A stretch of 49,791 bases of DNA from NCBI GenBank assembly GCA_964465805.1, contig CAYXLG010000003.1, positions 1 to 49,791 of the forward strand, in the 5' to 3' direction. The notes beneath the pieces were generated by a model. That model did no database searches and was not told where the DNA came from. It saw only the letters and a program-made list of their open reading frames with translations. Shown one piece after another: positions 1-42,778 of the stretch (the first letter of the stretch is position 1; every line of letters begins with the position of its first letter). This DNA comes from an uncultured Muribaculaceae bacterium. GTDB taxonomy: Bacteria; Bacillota_I; Bacilli_A; RF39; UBA660. The translations under genes were made by a program, and so were the position numbers.

Positions 1-437
1 TTTAATAATCTTAATTTATTTGAAATTGTAGATTGATTACGATCTAATTTTACAGCTAGACCCTCTTGATTTAAATAACCCATATCTAATATTTTTTTAT
101 ATGATATAGCTTCTTCGATTGGGGTCAAATCTTTTCTTTGAATATTTTCAATTAAAGCAACTTCAGCGCTTTTTTTATCATCTAAATTATTTATTATTGC
201 AGGAATTTTTTCTTTTCCGGCAATTGCACTTGCTTTATATCTTCTTTCACCAGCAATAATCTCATATTTATCACCAATCTCTCTAACTAAAATTGGTTGA
301 ATTACGCCGTGCTCCTTAATTGAACCAGCTAGTTCATTAATCGCTTTTTCATCAAATTTTATTCTTGGTTGAAATCTATTAGGTAAAATATCATCAAGAT
401 TCAATTCTACAACTTTTTTTTCTTTCCCCTCGTTCAT
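1..437 (-). CDS. noc: ParB/Noc-family DNA-binding protein, N-terminal part (3' end runs off the window)
   Basis: Open-ended minus-strand ORF, not in the track. ATG at 437-435 is preceded by GGAGGT. My translation is MNEGKEKKVVELNLDDILPNRFQPRIKFDEKAINELAGSIKEHGVIQPILVREIGDKYEIIAGERRYKAS...IENIQRKDLTPIEEA...QSTISNKLRLLK. GERR and ENIQR are ParB motifs. PNRFQPR and QSTIxNKLRLL resemble Bacillus Noc more than Spo0J, and the position right after rsmG fits noc. It could instead be the sole ParB. Confidence 0.6.
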   Translation of the reverse strand, partial: MNEGKEKKVVELNLDDILPNRFQPRIKFDEKAINELAGSIKEHGVIQPILVREIGDKYEIIAGERRYKASAIAGKEKIPAIINNLDDKKSAEVALIENIQRKDLTPIEEAISYKKILDMGYLNQEGLAVKLDRNQSTISNKLRLL

Positions 438-8941: not shown

Positions 8942-9080
8942 TGTGGATAAATTATTATATAAAAAAGTTTTCCACAATATAAAAACAACGTTTTTTGTAT
9001 TTAATTAAAGGAAATTATTCGATTTTCCACATTATCCACATATATAATAATAATATAATAAACAAAAAATATAAAAAGGA
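8942..9080. promoter_or_regulatory. oriC right arm: DnaA boxes plus an AT-rich unwinding candidate between dnaA and dnaN
   Basis: tgtggataa 8942-8950 (perfect), ttttccaca 8968-8976, ttttccaca 9023-9031, and the abutting ttatccaca 9032-9040 (perfect). An almost pure A/T run follows at 9041-9075. Confidence 0.8.
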
Positions 9081-10378: not shown

Positions 10379-10828
10379 ATGGAAAAGTATGAGATTAGTC
10401 CTTCAACTATTGCAATTATTGCAATTGATGGTTATAAAAGTAAAATAATTGAAGATAATGATACTTTTATAGTTAATAGAACGACCCCAAAAATAATAGA
10501 TGACAGTTGTCGTTATTTTGGAAGTTCTTATTTAGGAAGATTTGAAGGGAGTAAAAATTTTTTGGGTGGTACTATATACAAATCACCAATTATTATTGAA
10601 GAGAGCCATGAAATTATTTTTTTACCTACAGGATCAGCACGTTCAAGTGATTGCTCGTGGATCTCTTTAAATAAGATTTCTCATTATAAGAAAAAAGACA
10701 ACCAAACAGAAATACATTTTAAAAACGGAACTTCTTTATTATTTCCGATGTCATATTCGTCATTTGAAAATCAGGTTTTACGAGCATCTAGATTAGAATC
10801 TATACTTAGACAAAGAAAATCTATATAA
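10379..10828 (+). CDS. comK: Competence transcription factor ComK family protein
   Basis: IIDDSCRYFGSSYLGR, FLPTGS...CSWIS and MSYSSFENQVLRAS align with recalled B. subtilis ComK segments (IVDRSCRFFGSSYAGR, FPTLS...CGWIS, ISYNSFENQVYRTA). A strong RBS, AAGGAGGTG, precedes the start. Confidence 0.88.
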   Translation: MEKYEISPSTIAIIAIDGYKSKIIEDNDTFIVNRTTPKIIDDSCRYFGSSYLGRFEGSKNFLGGTIYKSPIIIEESHEIIFLPTGSARSSDCSWISLNKISHYKKKDNQTEIHFKNGTSLLFPMSYSSFENQVLRASRLESILRQRKSI

Positions 10829-14008: not shown

Positions 14009-16444
14009 ATGAATGAAAGATTAAAAGATATAAATATATCAGACGAGATGGAAGGTTCTTTTCTCGATTATTCAATGAGTGTTATCGTATCAAGAGCATT
14101 ACCAGATGTTAGAGATGGTTTGAAACCAGTCCATAGGCGTATTTTGTACACAATGTATGAAGAAGGATTTTTACCAGAAAAAAAATATGTAAAAAGTGCA
14201 AACACAGTTGGTAATGTTCTAGCACATTATCACCCTCATGGAGATACTGCCGTATATGATACTATGGTTAGGATGGCACAGTCATTTAATTATCGTTATC
14301 CATTAGTAGATGGTCACGGAAACTTTGGATCAATAGATGGTTATTCAGCAGCTGCACAACGTTATACAGAATCTAAATTAGCAAAAATTTCTATGGAAAT
14401 GTTACGTGATATAAATAAAGAAACCGTTGATTTTGTACGAAACTATGATGGTGAAAGAAAAGAACCATCTGTTTTACCGAGTCGTTTTCCAAATATTTTA
14501 GTTAACGGAACAATGGGAATTGCAGTTGGAATGGCAACTAATATTCCTCCACACAATCTTAATGAAGTTATTGATGGATGTATAGCTTATATTGATAATA
14601 ATGATATTACAACGTTGGAATTAATGGATTATATAAAGGGACCAGATTTTCCAACAGGAGCTAAAATTTTAGGTAATAGTGGAATTAAAAAAGCTTATGA
14701 AACTGGAAAAGGTATAATAACAATTCGTTCTAAATGTGAAATAGTAGAAAATAAAAAAGGTAAACAAAGCATTATTATCACAGAAATTCCATATCAAACA
14801 AACAAATCATCATTAATAACTAAAATAGCAGATTTAGCTCGCGAAAAAGTCATTGAAGGAATAACAGATTTACGCGATGAAACAGATTTAAATGGAATAC
14901 GTATAGTAATAGATATTAGAAGAGGTGTAAATGCAAATGTAATTTTAAATAATTTATTTAAATATACTAATTTACAAACATCATACGGTATAAATCTCTT
15001 AGCTTTAGTTGATGGAGAACCAAAACTTCTAGGTTTAAAAAGCATAATTGAAAAATACATTGAACATCAAAGAACTGTTATAATAAGAAGAACTAGATAT
15101 GATTTAAATAAGGCTTCTAAAAGAGCTCATATATTAGAAGGATTAGTAATAGCGTTAGAAAACATAGATGATGTTATCAAAATTATTAAATCAGCAAAGA
15201 ATGATAAAGATGCTATCGATCAGTTAATTAATAAGTATAATTTAACGCAAGAGCAATCAGAAGCTATTCTTGAAATGAAATTAAGAAGATTAACTGGGTT
15301 AGAAAGAAGTAAAATTGAAGAAGAATTAAAAGGTTTAACAATATTAATCGAACAATTAAAAGAAATACTTTCAAGTAACGAAAAAATTCTTAATATTATT
15401 AAAGAAGAATTATTGGAAATCAAAAATAAATATGGGGATGAAAGAAGAACTGAGATTGATGTAACATCTATTGAATATATAGAAGATGAATCATTAATTC
15501 CAGTTGAAGATATAGTAATTACTTTAACAGACAAAGGTTATATAAAAAGAATTACTAGTGAAACTTACCGTACACAAAATCGTGGTGGGGTAGGAATAAA
15601 AGGTATGACAACAAATGAGGAAGATATCGTTGAACATTTATTAATAATGAAAACTCATGATTATGTAATGTTTTTCACAAATAAAGGAAAAGTATATCGA
15701 ATAAAAGGATATGAAATACCAATGTTCAGTAGGCAATCAAAAGGATTACCAATAATTAATTTGTTACCATTAGATAAAGATGAAAAAGTAAACGTCTTGT
15801 TAAAAGTAAATGAAGAAGATACTAATAACAATATTGTATTTTGTACACAAAACGGTCTAATTAAGAGAACTAAAATATCAAAATTTGAAAACATTAGAGT
15901 AACCGGAAAAATAGCCATTACTCTTAAAGATGATGATGAATTAATATCTGTTAAAAAGACAACCGGTAATAATGAAATTATGATTGCAACAGCTGATGGA
16001 AGAATGATAAGATTTAATGAAGAAGAAGTAAGAATTATGGGTAGAACTGCAAGTGGTGTTAAAGGTATTAATATAGGCAACAGCAAGTGTGTGGGTTGCG
16101 AGATTGCTACAGATAATCAATTGGTCCTAATTGTAACCGAAAATGGTTATGGTAAAAAAACAGACGTAAACGAATATAGAACTACACATCGAGGTACTAA
16201 AGGTGTTAAAGCACTTAATATAACAGAAAAAAATGGTAATATTATTTCATTTAAACTAGTCGATGGAAATGAAGACTTAATGATAGTTACAGATTATGGT
16301 ACTATTATTAAATTATCACTAGAGCAAGTTTCAACAACAGGTCGTGTTGCACAAGGGGTAAGATTAATAAATTTAAAAGAAGAACAAAAAGTTAGTTCCA
16401 TTGCTATAGATACTAATGTGAATGAAGAAGAAAAAGATGAATAA
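14009..16444 (+). CDS. gyrA: DNA gyrase subunit A
   Basis: 811 aa with a QRDR-like [10 protein letters not shown], the active-site region AAQRYTE, and a beta-pinwheel C-terminal domain. Confidence 0.97.
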
Positions 16445-16469
16445 CAATCATCTTTTTTCTATTAAATAA

Positions 16470-16485
16470 TGTTTCACGTGAAACA
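16470..16485. promoter_or_regulatory. parS site 1 (TGTTTCACGTGAAACA)
   Basis: Perfect 16-bp palindrome matching the Firmicute parS consensus tGTTNCACGTGAAACa. Confidence 0.85.
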
Positions 16486-16541
16486 TTAAAGTATTAATAA
16501 AAAAACAACAATACCATATAAAAACGAACAAATAAAAACCA

Positions 16542-16557
16542 ATGTTTCACGTGAAAC
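16542..16557. promoter_or_regulatory. parS site 2 (TGTTTCACGTGAAACA)
   Basis: Identical 16-mer, 72 bp after site 1. Confidence 0.85.
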
Positions 16558-16609
16558 ATCAAAGTATCAACAAAAACAACGTATCATATAAAAAAATAAA
16601 TAAAAGACA

Positions 16610-16625
16610 ATGTTTCACGTGAAAC
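16610..16625. promoter_or_regulatory. parS site 3 (TGTTTCACGTGAAACA)
   Basis: Identical 16-mer, 68 bp after site 2. Confidence 0.85.
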
Positions 16626-16731
16626 ATTGAAAAAACAATATAAATTGTAAAATATATTAAGAAAAAAACATTGTTTAATAAAAAAATAGATTAATTCTTG
16701 CTTTTTATTAAAAAATATTATATCATCTAAT

Positions 16732-16806
16732 AGACACAACATATATAATCGAACTAGGTCAGGATTGGAAGATAGCAGCCTTAAGATTCCCTATATGTGT
16801 GTGTCT
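16732..16806 (+). ncRNA. ffs: Signal recognition particle RNA, short (4.5S/scRNA-like) form
   Basis: Contains aGGTCAGGattGGAAgatAGCAGCC, the conserved SRP domain IV motif. It is closed by the helix agacacaacatata/tatatgtgtgtgtct and followed by a T7 run. Ends are approximate. Confidence 0.75.
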
Positions 16807-16836
16807 TTTTTTATGATAAAAAATGTGAGGTGTTTT

Positions 16837-17274
16837 ATGAAATATAATTTTATGGAAATTGCACTACAAGAAGCGGAAAAATCTTTTGAGTATGATGACG
16901 TTCCTGTTGGTGCTGTTATAGTAAAAGAAGGAAAAATAATAGCAAAAACTCATAATAAAAGAGAAAAAAACAAAATGGTAACTCATCATGCTGAAATTCT
17001 AGCTATTGAAAAAGCGTGTAAAAAATTAAAAACATGGAGGTTAGATGATTGTATGTTATATGTAACTCTTGAACCTTGTTTGATGTGCTATGGAGCAATA
17101 TTGCAATCTAGAATATCAAAAGTGATTTATGCAACATCCTCGGATAAATTTGGTTTTACACATAATATTAATAACTATTTAAATAAAAATGTAGAAATAT
17201 TAAAATCAGAAAAAAAATATGATGTAAAATCTAAAGAAATGCTTCGATTTTTTTTTAGAGATAAACGAAATTAA
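16837..17274 (+). CDS. tadA: tRNA-specific adenosine-34 deaminase TadA
   Basis: Deaminase motifs HAEILAI and PCLMCYGAI. Start is MKYNFMEIALQEA after GAGGTG. The track start at 16765 overlaps the SRP RNA. Confidence 0.9.
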   Translation: MKYNFMEIALQEAEKSFEYDDVPVGAVIVKEGKIIAKTHNKREKNKMVTHHAEILAIEKACKKLKTWRLDDCMLYVTLEPCLMCYGAILQSRISKVIYATSSDKFGFTHNINNYLNKNVEILKSEKKYDVKSKEMLRFFFRDKRN

Positions 17275-17323: not shown

Positions 17324-19012
17324 ATGTATCAATCACTATACAGAAAATATAGACCTAAAAATTTTGATGATGTAGTTGGTCAGAAAATTATAATAAGAAT
17401 TTTAAAAAATTCAATTAAAAAAAATCAAATAACACATGCTTATTTATTTACTGGTCCTAGAGGAACCGGAAAAACAAGTGTTGCTCATATATTGGCTAAA
17501 ACTGTTAACTGTACAGATTTAGACGATTATAAAACTTGCGACAAATGTGTTAGTTGTACACAAATAAACAATCGACAAAACATTGATATAGTAGAGATAG
17601 ATGCAGCTTCAAATAACGGAGTTGATGAAATAAGAGAACTAAAGAGTAAAGTTTCTTTAATACCGTCGACAAGTAAATATAAAGTATACATTATTGATGA
17701 GGTTCACATGTTAACAATTGGTGCCTTTAATGCTTTATTAAAAACGTTAGAAGAACCACCAGCACACGTAATATTTATCTTAGCAACAACTGAGCCTCAT
17801 AAAATTCCAGAAACAATTCTTTCTAGATGTCAAAAATTTAATTTTAAGAAAATAGATGATAAAAGCATGTTTGATAGATTAAGTTATATTTGTAAAGAAG
17901 AAAAAATTAAAATAGAACCACCAGCACTAGATGAAATTATTCGCTTTTCATCTGGAGGTATGAGGGATGCTATAAGTTTATTAGAACAAGCTTATGTTTA
18001 TAGCGAAAATAAGATTACAATTAATGAAATTCATGAGATAAATGGTACATTACCTCAATATCAATTAAAAGATTTAGTAATTAATATTGTAAATAAAAAT
18101 TTAGTTGAAATATTTAAGTTGATAGAAAAATATGATCATGAAGGGAAAAATTTTATAAAATTAGTTGAGGAAATAATATTGTTTCTTAAAAATATTATTA
18201 TTTTCAAAAACATTCCAGATTACTTTACAGATGATATTTCCCGGGAAATATATAATGACAAAATTTTTAAACTTTCAAATGAAGAAATCTTGAAAAAAAT
18301 TTCCAAAATAAATGATTCTTTGATTGAAATGAAAAATTATAATCATCCTAAATTAATATTTGAATTATTAATGATTTCATTAGTTGGTACAGAAAAAATA
18401 AAAAACCAACAATTAAAGGAAACTGTTGAACAAATTAATAATCCAGAATTAGTAAAAGAGGTAATATTAGATAATAAAACAGATAAGAATAAGAAAACTC
18501 CAAAAACTATTGAAAACACAGAAAAAAGTAACGAAAAAGAAGAAATTATAAAAAAATTAATAGAAATAAGAGTAAATAATACGTTTGTAAAACCAAGCAA
18601 ATCTTTATTAAATAAATTAAATAGGGATTTAGAAATATCTCGAAAATATGTATTAGACGACAATTATGGAAAAATTGCATCTTTATTATTAGATGGAAGA
18701 ATAACAGGTGCAAGTACCGAAAATATTATCTTTGTTTATTCTAGTGAAGGAATGAAAAGAACATTTAATAATAATATTTCAATTATTGAAAACTTTATTT
18801 CAAAAATATTTGGTAAACATTATAAAATAATTTCACTAAATGAAAATGATTGGTCTTTTTATCGTTCAGAATTTAAAAGTAAATTAAAAAAATATGTATA
18901 TATAGAAGAAACAGAAGAAATAAAAGAATATTTAAATAACCAATTAGAAAAAAATGATAAAAAAGATGAAATACAAACTTTGTTTGATGATATTATAGTG
19001 TATAAAAATTAG
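17324..19012 (+). CDS. dnaX: DNA polymerase III subunit gamma/tau
   Basis: 562 aa with the N-terminus YRKYRPKNFDDVVGQ, Walker A GPRGTGKTS, a Zn module CxxCxxC, and SRC (ILSRCQKF). Confidence 0.95.
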   Translation: MYQSLYRKYRPKNFDDVVGQKIIIRILKNSIKKNQITHAYLFTGPRGTGKTSVAHILAKTVNCTDLDDYKTCDKCVSCTQINNRQNIDIVEIDAASNNGVDEIRELKSKVSLIPSTSKYKVYIIDEVHMLTIGAFNALLKTLEEPPAHVIFILATTEPHKIPETILSRCQKFNFKKIDDKSMFDRLSYICKEEKIKIEPPALDEIIRFSSGGMRDAISLLEQAYVYSENKITINEIHEINGTLPQYQLKDLVINIVNKNLVEIFKLIEKYDHEGKNFIKLVEEIILFLKNIIIFKNIPDYFTDDISREIYNDKIFKLSNEEILKKISKINDSLIEMKNYNHPKLIFELLMISLVGTEKIKNQQLKETVEQINNPELVKEVILDNKTDKNKKTPKTIENTEKSNEKEEIIKKLIEIRVNNTFVKPSKSLLNKLNRDLEISRKYVLDDNYGKIASLLLDGRITGASTENIIFVYSSEGMKRTFNNNISIIENFISKIFGKHYKIISLNENDWSFYRSEFKSKLKKYVYIEETEEIKEYLNNQLEKNDKKDEIQTLFDDIIVYKN

Positions 19013-29659: not shown

Positions 29660-29880
29660 TGTTTAAAGATTATGAAGGAAAGATAAATATTGTTGTTTTG
29701 GTAGAGACTTTGTGCTTGGTGAAAACAAAGAAAGCATAATATTTTAAATGGTTCTGGAATTGTTTGATCGATATGTAGATTAAGCCGTATTCATGCGTTA
29801 AATGGTTAAGTGTATAACATTTGTTATAAATTAAGGTGGTACCGCGTAATCACGTCCTTAAATTGGATGTGATTTTTTTA
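29660..29880 (+). promoter_or_regulatory. T-box riboswitch leader, probable Met (AUG) specifier
   Basis: T-box sequence aaattaaGGTGGTACCGCG at 29828-29846. Terminator atcacgtcc/ggatgtgat plus T6 at 29849-29879. Stem I has an AG bulge gtAGAGAc and a distal loop ttGGTGAAAa. The candidate specifier is taaATGg at 29748-29750. Confidence 0.8.
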
Positions 29881-29894
29881 TTTGGAGGTATAGA

Positions 29895-30389
29895 ATGGCT
29901 AGAGGATTTGAAAAAATAAGTTTTCCACAGTTTTGTGTGGATATTTCTGATAATAAAGAAATTTATGAGGAATATAATTTACCAGCTAGAAGTACCAAAT
30001 ATAGTGCAGGTTATGATTTTTGGGCATTAGAGGATATTGTTATAAAACCTGGTGAAACAAAAAAAATCCCAACGGGAGTTAAAGTCTATATGAATCCTGA
30101 TGAGATGTTAATGTTGGTTGTTAGAAGCAGCATGGGATTTAAATATAATGTTAGATTATGTAATCAAGTTGGTATAATTGAGAGTGATTATTATAACAAC
30201 GCTTCTAATGAAGGACATATTTGGATTAGACTTCAAAATCATGGTAATGATAAATTTTTAATAAAAAAAGGAGATGCCTATATACAAGGGATATTTACAC
30301 AATTTTTGTTTGTTGATAATGAAGAAAAAATAGAAACAGAAAGGGCTGGTGGTTTTGGTAGTACCAGCAGAGGTGATAATAATGAGTAA
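29895..30389 (+). CDS. dut: dUTP diphosphatase (trimeric dUTPase)
   Basis: 164 aa with motifs RSTKYSAGYDF, GIIESDYY and a C-terminal RAGGFGSTSRG. Confidence 0.85.
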   Translation: MARGFEKISFPQFCVDISDNKEIYEEYNLPARSTKYSAGYDFWALEDIVIKPGETKKIPTGVKVYMNPDEMLMLVVRSSMGFKYNVRLCNQVGIIESDYYNNASNEGHIWIRLQNHGNDKFLIKKGDAYIQGIFTQFLFVDNEEKIETERAGGFGSTSRGDNNE

Positions 30390-31956
30390 GAAATTTAATA
30401 TTTATACAGCCATTGCTTATACATCTGGCAAACCTCATATTGGTAATACTTATGAAATAGTACTGACTGATGCGATTGCTAGATACAAAAGATTATTAGG
30501 ATATGAAGTATATTTTCAAACAGGAACAGATGAACATGGACAAAAAATAGCGGAAAAAGCTTGTGAAAATGAAAAGAGTAATCAAGAGTTTGTTGATGGG
30601 GTTGCATTAGAGGTAAGAAGAATTTGGGATACTATGAATACAAGTTATGACAAATTTGTTAGAACTACAAATTCAAATCATAAAGAAAAAGTTTCTAAAA
30701 TATTTGAAAAATTATACAAGCAAGGAGATATATATAAAGGCGTTTATGAAGGATTATACTGTACACCGTGTGAATCATTTTTTACTATTTCACAATTAGT
30801 TAATGGAAAATGTCCTGATTGTGGACGTGATGTAGTACCTACTAAAGAGGAAGCGTACTTTTTGAAATTAAGTAATTATGCTGAAAGATTAGAAGAACAC
30901 ATAAAAAATAATCCCGATTTTATTGTACCTGAAAGTAGAAAAAATGAAATCATAAATAACTTTATAAAACCAGGATTACAAGACCTTTGTGTATCAAGAA
31001 CATCATTTGATTGGGGAGTACCTGTGACTTTTGATGATAATCATGTTGTTTATGTATGGATAGATGCTTTAAGTAATTATATTACATTTACCGGATATGA
31101 TGTAGATGGTAACCATGAATCTAACTTTGAAAAATATTGGCCTGCAGATCTCCACGTTATAGGAAAAGATATTTTGAGATTCCATGCTATTTATTGGCCA
31201 ATAATATTAATGGCTTTAGATTTACCGCTTCCTAAACAGATTTTTGGTCATCCATGGCTTTTATTAGGAAAAGAAAAAATGAGTAAATCAAAAGGTAATA
31301 TTGTTTATGCTGATGATTTAGTTAAAATATTTGGTTTAGATCCGGTTAGATATTATATGTTAAGTCAAATTCCATATGCAAATGACGGAATATTTACATA
31401 TGAGTTAATAATTGATAAAACCAATGCTGAACTTGTTAATAATTTAGGAAATTTAGTTAATAGAACTATAAGTATGGCTCATAAATATTTCGATGGAGTA
31501 GTCCCAGAACCTAAAGAATTTCAAGAAATTGATGATAAACTTATTGAATATATCAATGAAAAACAAACTACTATAGATATAAAAATGAATGAATATAAGG
31601 TTTCTGAAGCTATAAATGCAGTATTTGATATATTCAATAGAACTAATAAATATATTGATGAGACAACACCTTGGATATTAGCTAAAAATACTGATGATCA
31701 TGATCGTCTAGCAACAGTTATATATAATTTATTAGAAAGTATTAGAATTGGTGCGATTTTACTATCACCATTTTTACCTGATGCAGCAGAAAGAATTTTT
31801 GAACAGCTTAATGTATCAAATAAAGACTATAAATTAATATTTGACTTTAGAGGTATTGTTCCTGGTATAAAATTAAATAATCCAGAGCCATTATTTTTAA
31901 GAATTGATAAGCAAGACAAACTTAAAGAAATAGAAAATTACAAAAATAATGCATAA
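30382..31956 (+). CDS. metG: Methionine--tRNA ligase (short form, no C-terminal tRNA-binding domain)
   Basis: HIGH-type motif KPHIGNTYE, a Zn knuckle CTPCE...CPDCG, and KMSKSKGN. The start MSKKFNIY at 30382 overlaps the dut stop (ATGAGTAA). The track start at 30349 is unlikely. Confidence 0.93.
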   Translation: MSKKFNIYTAIAYTSGKPHIGNTYEIVLTDAIARYKRLLGYEVYFQTGTDEHGQKIAEKACENEKSNQEFVDGVALEVRRIWDTMNTSYDKFVRTTNSNHKEKVSKIFEKLYKQGDIYKGVYEGLYCTPCESFFTISQLVNGKCPDCGRDVVPTKEEAYFLKLSNYAERLEEHIKNNPDFIVPESRKNEIINNFIKPGLQDLCVSRTSFDWGVPVTFDDNHVVYVWIDALSNYITFTGYDVDGNHESNFEKYWPADLHVIGKDILRFHAIYWPIILMALDLPLPKQIFGHPWLLLGKEKMSKSKGNIVYADDLVKIFGLDPVRYYMLSQIPYANDGIFTYELIIDKTNAELVNNLGNLVNRTISMAHKYFDGVVPEPKEFQEIDDKLIEYINEKQTTIDIKMNEYKVSEAINAVFDIFNRTNKYIDETTPWILAKNTDDHDRLATVIYNLLESIRIGAILLSPFLPDAAERIFEQLNVSNKDYKLIFDFRGIVPGIKLNNPEPLFLRIDKQDKLKEIENYKNNA

Positions 31957-41625: not shown

Positions 41626-41702
41626 GGGTGATTAGCTCAGTTGGTTAGAGCACCTGCCTTACAAGCAGGGGGTCGTAAGTTCGAGTCTTACATCGCCCAC
41701 CA
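41626..41702 (+). tRNA. tRNA-Val (anticodon TAC)
   Basis: Acceptor GGGTGAT/ATCGCCC, anticodon loop CTTACAA, T-loop GTTCGAGTC, encoded CCA. Confidence 0.9.
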
Positions 41703-41703
41703 T

Positions 41704-41780
<77 letters not shown>

Positions 41781-41786
41781 TTAGTT

Positions 41787-41870
41787 GGAGGGATAGCGAA
41801 GTGGTCAAACGCGGCAGACTGTAAATCTGTTCCTTCGGGTTCGATGGTTCAAATCCATCTCCCTCCACCA
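41787..41870 (+). tRNA. tRNA-Tyr (anticodon GTA)
   Basis: Acceptor GGAGGGA/TCCCTCC, anticodon loop CTGTAAA, long variable arm, encoded CCA. Confidence 0.9.
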
Positions 41871-41884
41871 TTAATATTTGACCT

Positions 41885-41959
41885 TGCCTCGTAGCCAAGC
41901 GGTAAGGCACCACACTTTGACTGTGGCATGCGCTAGTTCGAATCTAGCCGAGGCAGCCA
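41885..41959 (+). tRNA. tRNA-Gln (anticodon TTG)
   Basis: Acceptor TGCCTCG/CGAGGCA, anticodon loop CTTTGAC, encoded CCA. Confidence 0.88.
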
Positions 41960-41966
41960 TTTTTAT

Positions 41967-42042
41967 GTCCCGTTAGCTCAGTCGGTAGAGCATTTGACTT
42001 TTAATCAAAGGGTCACAAGTTCGATTCTTGTACGGGACACCA
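41967..42042 (+). tRNA. tRNA-Lys (anticodon TTT)
   Basis: Acceptor GTCCCGT/ACGGGAC, anticodon loop CTTTTAA, encoded CCA. Confidence 0.9.
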
Positions 42043-42051
42043 TTCTTTTTT

Positions 42052-42140
42052 GCCTGAGTGGCGGAACAGGTAGACGCACAGGACTTAAAATCCTGGGAGA
42101 CTCAAATCTCGTGCCGGTTCAATTCCGGCCTTAGGCACCA
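42052..42140 (+). tRNA. tRNA-Leu (anticodon TAA)
   Basis: Acceptor GCCTGAG/CTTAGGC, anticodon loop CTTAAAA, long variable arm, encoded CCA. Confidence 0.9.
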
Positions 42141-42169
42141 TTATAATTTTTAGATTAAATCTATATTAT

Positions 42170-42262
42170 GGAGAAATACCCAAGTCTGGTTGAAGGGGCC
42201 GGTCTTGAAAACCGGGAGGTCGGTAATACGGCGCGGGGGTTCGAATCCCTCTTTCTCCGCCA
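42170..42262 (+). tRNA. tRNA-Ser (anticodon TGA)
   Basis: Acceptor GGAGAAA/TTTCTCC, anticodon loop CTTGAAA, long variable arm, encoded CCA. Confidence 0.9.
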
Positions 42263-42280
42263 TAAAGATTTAATCAATAT

Positions 42281-42357
<77 letters not shown>

Positions 42358-42362
42358 TATTT

Positions 42363-42438
42363 GGTCCCGTGGTGTAGCGGTTAACATGTCTGCCTGTCAC
42401 GCAGAAGATCGCGAGTTCAATTCTCGTCGGGACCGCCA
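42363..42438 (+). tRNA. tRNA-Asp (anticodon GTC)
   Basis: Acceptor GGTCCCG/CGGGACC, anticodon loop CTGTCAC, encoded CCA. Confidence 0.9.
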
Positions 42439-42443
42439 TTGTT

Positions 42444-42519
<76 letters not shown>

Positions 42520-42541
42520 TTTTAAATATAAGATTTAATTT

Positions 42542-42618
42542 GCGCCCGTAGATCAATTGGATAGATCGTTTGACTACGGATCAAAAGGTTATGGGTTCGA
42601 CTCCTATCGGGCGCGCCA
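42542..42618 (+). tRNA. tRNA-Arg (anticodon ACG)
   Basis: Acceptor GCGCCCG/CGGGCGC, anticodon loop CTACGGA, encoded CCA. Confidence 0.9.
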
Positions 42619-42621
42619 TAC

Positions 42622-42698
42622 CGGGAAATAGCACAACTTGGTAGTGCACTTGGTTTGGGACCAAGGGGTTGCAGGTTCAAATCCTGTTTTCCCGACCA
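42622..42698 (+). tRNA. tRNA-Pro (anticodon TGG)
   Basis: Acceptor CGGGAAA/TTTCCCG, anticodon loop TTTGGGA, encoded CCA. Confidence 0.9.
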
Positions 42699-42701
42699 TC
42701 T

Positions 42702-42778
42702 GGGGAATTAGCTCAGTTGGCTAGAGCACCTGCCTTGCACGCAGGGGGTCAAGGGTTCAAGTCCCTTATTCTCCACCA
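42702..42778 (+). tRNA. tRNA-Ala (anticodon TGC)
   Basis: Acceptor GGGGAAT/ATTCTCC with the G3:U70 identity pair, anticodon loop CTTGCAC, encoded CCA. Confidence 0.9.

Follow-up and report, generated by a model that had tools for sequence, protein, structure and literature searches.

Three consensus parS sites in a tandem repeat between gyrA and ffs of an uncultured low-G+C bacterium: a probable chromosomal ParB loading locus whose copy number appears to vary among relatives

Bacterial chromosomes carry their parS sites in more than one arrangement. Bacillus subtilis has 10 dispersed parS sites, which are mostly intragenic. Clustered, intergenic consensus sites have been documented experimentally in Corynebacterium glutamicum (10 parS in 35 kb, 9 of them intergenic), Caulobacter crescentus (at least five parS near ori) and Pseudomonas aeruginosa (parS1–4), and intergenic parS of P. 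aeruginosa can repress neighbouring genes. The sopC-type centromere of the F plasmid is built from direct repeats in tandem, every one of which contains a single inverted repeat that ParB binds. The variation in parS number and clustering is named as an open question in a review of the ParABS system. Noc is a paralogue of ParB, and its binding site, the NBS, is the palindrome ATTTCCCGGGAAAT. The two specificities have been assigned to a set of four residues, Q173, K179, K184 and R201 in Noc and R173, T179, A184 and G201 in ParB (Jalal et al., 2020).

We analyzed a stretch of 49,791 nucleotides, called the window below, which is an entire metagenomic contig of about 25% G+C and has the layout of a classical Firmicute origin region. 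The minus strand carries a noc-like gene (3–437), rsmG, mnmG, mnmE, khpB/jag, yidC and rnpA. On the plus strand, dnaA, dnaN, comK, recF, gyrB and gyrA are followed by an array of parS sites and then by ffs, tadA and dnaX, beyond which lie ybaB, recR, holB, ricT, rsmI, pth, mfd and further genes. The features referred to in the text are as follows.

3–437, minus strand: Noc-type ParB paralogue, N-terminal 145 codons, cut by the contig end
7410–7515, no strand: DnaA-box cluster upstream of dnaA, oriC part 1
8942–9040, no strand: DnaA-box cluster at the dnaA–dnaN junction, oriC part 2
14009–16444, plus strand: gyrA, upstream flank of the array (ORF annotation)
16464–16627, no strand: tandem repeat with three parS (Tandem Repeats Finder and unit alignment)
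16470–16485, no strand: parS copy 1, TGTTTCACGTGAAACA, perfect 16-bp palindrome
16543–16558, no strand: parS copy 2, perfect
16611–16626, no strand: parS copy 3, perfect
16698–16726, plus strand: putative ffs promoter, TTGCTT, 17 nt, TATCAT (read by eye)
16728–16813, plus strand: ffs, small SRP RNA, downstream flank of the array (Rfam RF00169, 59.2 bits)
16837–17274, plus strand: tadA, tRNA adenosine deaminase, then dnaX, ybaB and recR (ORF annotation)

Several other features of the window were recorded in passing. A comK homologue (10379–10828, plus strand; Pfam ComK, 1.3e-41) lies amid the core origin genes, between dnaN and recF, an unexpected place for a competence regulator; the relative L124 too has a ComK gene next to dnaN. 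A T-box leader (113 bits; 29663–29862, plus strand) precedes an ORF with a dUTPase-domain match (29895–30389), which overlaps the start of metS (30349–31956), and the GTG listed as the start of metS may lie too far upstream. Fourteen tRNA genes are clustered at 41626–42775 (plus strand) in a stretch of raised G+C (about 38%), and the window contig has no rRNA genes.

All three sites of the array match the parS consensus tGTTNCACGTGAAACa at 16 of 16 positions, in agreement with the perfect palindromes claimed in an earlier, sequence-only reading of this DNA. That reading had the first site right at 16470 and placed the other two at 16542 and 16610, each off by one (16543 and 16611). The palindrome extends to 18–20 bp (AATGTTTCACGTGAAACATT) and is the same in every copy. 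No other match to TGTTTCACGTGAAACA is found on the whole 49.8-kb contig, with up to three mismatches allowed. Dinucleotide shuffling gave a mean of 0.33 expected matches, and none of 100 shuffles reached three. Tandem Repeats Finder describes the array as a repeat of period 68 with 2.3 copies, 84% matches and 5% indels; the start-to-start distances between the parS sites are 73 and 68 bp. Aligning the units gives an invariant core of 18–20 bp, AATGTTTCACGTGAAACAT[T/C], separated by A-rich spacers that have diverged and whose kinship is still recognisable, so that the array consists of two full units and a third parS. The period and the related spacers bear out the proposed ~70-bp repeat and support an origin by tandem duplication of a unit bearing one parS. 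As the assembly is metagenomic, the copy number could be in error through mis-assembly, although the diverged spacers speak against collapse.

The array is non-coding, as had been claimed: it lies between the end of gyrA at 16444 and the start of ffs at 16728, and the interval contains no ORF of 60 or more residues and no Rfam family; a relaxed Rfam scan and a list of short ORFs added nothing credible. Its distance from oriC, measured from the DnaA-box clusters and the GC skew, which switches near 7 kb, is 7.4–9 kb, close to the 8–9 kb given before, and the sites are thus origin-proximal, as expected of parS.

In its sequence and setting the array resembles the parS/Spo0J-Soj-SMC system of B. 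subtilis. The 16-bp consensus is identical, the sites are origin-proximal, and the surroundings are of Firmicute type, with noc next to rsmG and, in relatives of the window, soj-spo0J downstream. Unlike the dispersed sites of B. subtilis, those of the window are packed into a single non-coding tandem array, and in relatives no parS was found in or near the parAB genes. With C. glutamicum, Caulobacter and P. aeruginosa the locus shares redundant, mostly intergenic consensus sites near oriC that would make up one ParB nucleation zone. In those species, however, the sites are kilobases apart and have unrelated flanks, whereas here they are 68–73 bp apart and the flanks are duplicated. The architecture, direct tandem repeats with one inverted-repeat site in each unit and a copy number open to unequal recombination, fits that of sopC. 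In contrast to sopC, the array is chromosomal and of chromosomal parS type, and it is not adjacent to parAB, which in one relative lies about 24 kb away (k141_1274299). The flanking genes, gyrA, ffs, tadA and dnaX in conserved order, are housekeeping genes and not those of a plasmid or phage. The array shows no similarity to plasmid and phage records, which rules out a mobile origin of the repeat unit but has no bearing on plasmid-borne parS sites of 16 bp. Finally, the window shares with the Noc-NBS system a paralogous protein encoded on the contig and a related palindromic site, and relatives have NBS beside parS; the array of the window differs in containing parS only.

To place the array among bacteria at large, we scanned species-representative genomes for two parS sites 35–65 bp apart and obtained at least 120 loci, distributed over Actinomycetota, Bacteroidota, Acidobacteriota, Pseudomonadota, Planctomycetota, Verrucomicrobiota, Clostridia and others. 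Among the 120 loci listed, 49 have three or more sites in steps of at most 150 bp, 13 have arrays recognised by Tandem Repeats Finder that hold at least two sites, and about half lie within 8 kb of homologues of parB, rsmG or mnmG. Examples are Collinsella (3 × 39 bp), L049 of the Acidobacteriota (4 × 52 bp), L045 of the Verrucomicrobia (66 bp × 2.5) and L098 of the Bacteroidia (81 bp × 3.3). Like the window, these arrays repeat the same 16-mer at a spacing of 24–90 bp, often near parB, rsmG or mnmG; they differ from it in host lineage and neighbouring genes, and they are known from the sequence scan only. Since close pairs, triples and tandem arrays are so widespread across phyla, the description of the array as unusual holds only against B. 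subtilis. The window array is an ordinary parS cluster of a known kind, atypical only relative to the B. subtilis model. The more interesting point is lineage-wide: an apparently hypervariable copy number, and units in sister lineages that combine parS with NBS.

The gene at 3–437, given as 1–437 in the earlier reading, had been taken as the start of a ParB/Noc-family gene. The family assignment stands: ParB_N and HTH_ParB domains are recognised in the fragment, and TIGR04285, the Noc model, gives its best score. As the cognate ParB of the array it does not qualify. The NCBIfam models do not separate the two types cleanly, as Noc and Spo0J-type paralogues both score best on the Noc model and below its cut-off, and the call therefore relies on the four residues to which Jalal et al., 2020 assigned the specificity. 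The fragment reads ...NQSTISNKLRLL and has Q and K at the equivalents of positions 173 and 179, which identifies the gene as Noc-type and predicts that it does not bind parS. The contig ends inside noc, and no cognate ParB is visible on it.

Relatives supply the missing side. Over mnmG-rsmG-noc, nucleotide identity to the window is about 80% for L123 and 77% for L206–L208, and the Noc protein of L123 is 91% identical to that of the window. In L123 and L206 the gene order is rsmG-noc-uvrB-...-parA-parB-mscS-DUF951-...-ychF, with parA-parB about 6 kb beyond noc, so that the counterpart in the window would fall beyond its left edge. The ParB of the relatives has 293 residues and an N-terminus typical of ParB; it reads GKSRSHITNILGLLRLP...MGHAR (GKSRSHITN...MGHAR), that is, R173 and G201, and is of parS type. 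The Noc paralogue has Q173, K179 and R201. A single 179-kb contig (k141_1274299), to which both L206 and L209 belong, encodes this parS-type ParB and, about 24 kb away, has the order gyrA, three parS with a 35-bp period, ffs and tadA. From relatives at 77–80% nucleotide identity, a Spo0J-type ParB is very likely encoded in the window's own genome, and most probably just beyond the left end of the contig. On the noc-parAB side of three relatives (13–21 kb each) no parS with two or fewer mismatches is present, which makes the ffs-side array the apparent local centromere. One Noc-like gene of a relative (L206:3334–4833) encodes 499 residues, about twice the usual length.

The position beside ffs is widely conserved. 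A parS-pattern scan of species-representative genomes and a metagenome scan with the GyrA C-terminus yielded, among the matches listed, 38 low-G+C loci of the type gyrA-ffs-tadA-dnaX. In 33 of these 38, again among the matches listed, 2–13 parS-like sites lie beside ffs in the gyrA-ffs-tadA order, and four further loci found through TadA homologues (L209–L212) also have parS beside ffs. In some relatives the array is downstream of ffs or tadA. Across 42 loci (279 kb), 172 parS sites with up to three mismatches were counted; 159 of them fit TGTT[TC]CACGTG[AG]AACA. Positions 5 and 12, which correspond to the degenerate position (N) of the published parS consensus, account for 116 of the 138 mismatches. 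The flanks are often unrelated while the 16-mer is kept, and clustered sites with unrelated flanks occur in L032, L107, L141 and L144. The concentration of mismatches at positions 5 and 12, together with the diverged flanks, indicates purifying selection on the bases predicted to contact ParB and not a decaying repeat.

A second parS array, past tadA, is present in some relatives. That of L134 (4672–4944) comprises 8 copies with a 34-bp period, its placement relative to dnaX being deduced from the start of tadA and the gene length; others are found in L135 (4682–4777) and L144 (5260–5741). The tadA-dnaX gap of the window is 50 bp and contains no second array. A contig labelled 'uncultured Muribaculaceae' (L014, CAYOWI010000005.1) has 28% G+C, the Bacilli-type order gyrA-ffs-tadA-dnaX and parS arrays, and is probably mis-binned or mislabelled.

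The number and length of the units differ from one relative to the next; the shortest unit is 34 bp and the longest about 110 bp.

Window: unit of 68–73 bp, 2.3 copies
L125: unit of 50 bp, at least 3.4 copies, contig ends inside the array
L132: unit of about 46 bp, 4 copies (Tandem Repeats Finder: 93-bp double unit × 1.9)
L134: unit of 34 bp, 8 copies (Tandem Repeats Finder: 135-bp four-fold unit × 2.0), second array between tadA and dnaX
L138: unit of 61 bp, 9.3 copies
L139: unit of 62 bp, 3.4 copies
L150: unit of 63 bp, 2.1 copies

The closest comparison is between L139 and L140, whose flanks are 99.6–99.98% identical and which have four and two units, respectively, assembly collapse being possible; their sister L138 has 10 units. 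Three contigs that encode an identical TadA (P0242; L210, L211 and L212) have at least five, at least four and three sites in differing layouts, again with collapse possible. Copy number at the ffs locus thus appears to expand and contract rapidly in the lineage, while any single case could reflect collapse in assembly. For the window itself, exact-protein look-ups of RsmG and GyrA gave no match, and those of MnmG and TadA matched only short Logan contigs (SRR8925797, SRR8925798) that stop before the array. Short-read contigs tend to break at or near the array: L125 and L210 stop inside one, and L205 begins 47 bp ahead of tadA. Arrays of this kind may therefore be under-represented or truncated in metagenome-assembled genomes (MAGs).

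NBS occur in the same intergenic region in at least 17 of the 42 related loci. In sister lineages, a tandem unit of 61–62 bp holds one parS and one NBS (ATTTCCYGGGAAAT) in strict alternation. The longest such array, L138:4000–4569, has 10 parS and 9 NBS with a 61-bp period, and alternation is also seen in L139 (4007–4216) and L140 (4008–4085). In L211 (50–81) and L212 (168–199) an NBS lies 2 bp from a parS, L008 (2034–2102) has the order parS-NBS-parS, and L144 and L141 are also among the loci that combine the two sites. In the literature searched, we found no description of an interleaved parS/NBS array or of a hypervariable tandem chromosomal centromere. Two NBS outside the array of the window were also recorded. 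A perfect one is located inside dnaX (18236–18249), 1.6 kb from the array, and one with a single mismatch lies in the 3' part of rsmG (723–736), just upstream of noc. In the relatives L123 and L206 the site in rsmG is free of mismatches, pointing to a conserved Noc site beside noc.

Could the palindromes serve some purpose other than loading ParB? They might be operators of another transcription factor, acting on ffs/tadA/dnaX or on gyrA termination, with a coincidental match to parS. The array is intergenic and upstream of ffs, intergenic parS of P. aeruginosa can act as repressor sites, and in L209 the last site is about 14 bp from a putative −35. In the window, however, the array stops about 70 bp upstream of the putative −35 and does not overlap the promoter. 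The promoter itself was read by eye and is not among the matches of a promoter/terminator scan of the interval, which returned only background-level promoter matches; L209 and L210 also have a TTGCTT-like motif. Relatives differ freely in copy number and in the distance to ffs, and some of them have the array past ffs or tadA. The sites equal the experimentally defined parS in full, their variation is almost confined to its known degenerate position, and a parS-type ParB is present in the relatives. Operators of another regulator are thus very unlikely. A hairpin in RNA or DNA, such as a terminator or cruciform, comes close to negligible as the role of the palindromes. The one feature in its favor is a terminator-like minus-strand hairpin at 16629–16608, formed by the third parS and a T-rich tail. 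No minus-strand gene reads into it, the T tail accompanies only one of the three copies, and a hairpin with a 4-nt loop is inherent to any perfect palindrome. Moreover, gyrA has a weak AT-rich hairpin and T-run of its own (16431–16457), which overlaps its stop codon. Two candidate classes were rejected: an intrinsic terminator, given the single minus-strand match (copy 3) and no upstream gene on that strand, and a CRISPR array, given a conserved core of 18–20 bp against repeats of 28–37 bp and spacers that are interrelated (84% matches). There are no cas genes among the annotated ORFs of the window.

Binding by the Noc paralogue, with a role in nucleoid occlusion or membrane tethering and not in partition, would be in line with the Noc-type gene on the contig and with the NBS that relatives interleave with parS at this locus. 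But the window sites are parS and not NBS. No NBS with two or fewer mismatches is present in the array (16464–16627), the nearest being those at 723 (one mismatch) and 18236 (perfect). The specificities of ParB and Noc are distinct and conserved, set by residues 173, 179, 184 and 201, and the window Noc has the NBS-type residues Q, K and R. We regard Noc as an extremely improbable ligand of these sites. It is also highly improbable that the array is a functionless repeat, neutral or selfish, or an artefact of assembly. It is a tandem repeat within an A-rich spacer, and short-read contigs do break at arrays of this kind (L205, L125, L210). Against this, the spacers have decayed around an unchanged 16-mer, parS recurs at this locus in more than 35 relatives that were assembled independently and have unrelated flanks, and the units of the window differ enough for unambiguous assembly.

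Based on these observations, we suggest, with a probability of roughly 85%, that the three palindromes are genuine chromosomal parS sites and the predicted loading sites of a Spo0J-type ParB. The conserved position in relatives and their parS-type ParB are the grounds for reading the locus in this way. By analogy with established ParABS biology, from which ParB binding, spreading and SMC loading at the array are extrapolated, ParB dimers would recognise every one of the 16-bp sites and, with CTP bound, form clamps that close and slide to flanking DNA. The partition complex built in this way would extend over the oriC/dnaA-gyrBA-dnaX region; ParA (Soj) would act on it, and SMC-ScpAB would be loaded from it. 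Three sites 68–73 bp apart could be occupied simultaneously, which would multiply the loading rate and provide redundancy against mutation. It is reasonable to infer that the array would be a very strong point of ParB nucleation and SMC loading. Unequal recombination or replication slippage between units would alter the copy number, and the locus beside ffs would be a conserved centromere site in this lineage of low-GC Bacilli ('Mollicutes bacterium' MAGs). More tentatively, and at somewhat less than even odds, the parS sites of the origin region may have been consolidated in a single, fast-turnover tandem locus on the ffs side, with none at parAB, and the units of sister lineages that carry NBS would load ParB and Noc clamps side by side.

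For this uncultured bacterium, the result shows where the centromere and SMC-loading site probably lie, which aids annotation and the orientation of MAG contigs around oriC. The lineage as a whole bears on the questions that the ParABS review leaves open, namely why the number of parS sites varies and why the sites cluster. At one fixed locus it provides arrays of 2 to 13 tandem copies, a natural series that includes the near-isogenic pair L139 and L140, which differ in unit number only. These arrays could serve as natural templates for relating the number and spacing of sites to the loading of ParB clamps. Those in which parS and NBS alternate could show whether the clamps of ParB and of Noc hinder or help each other, and the series could show how unequal recombination shapes bacterial centromeres.
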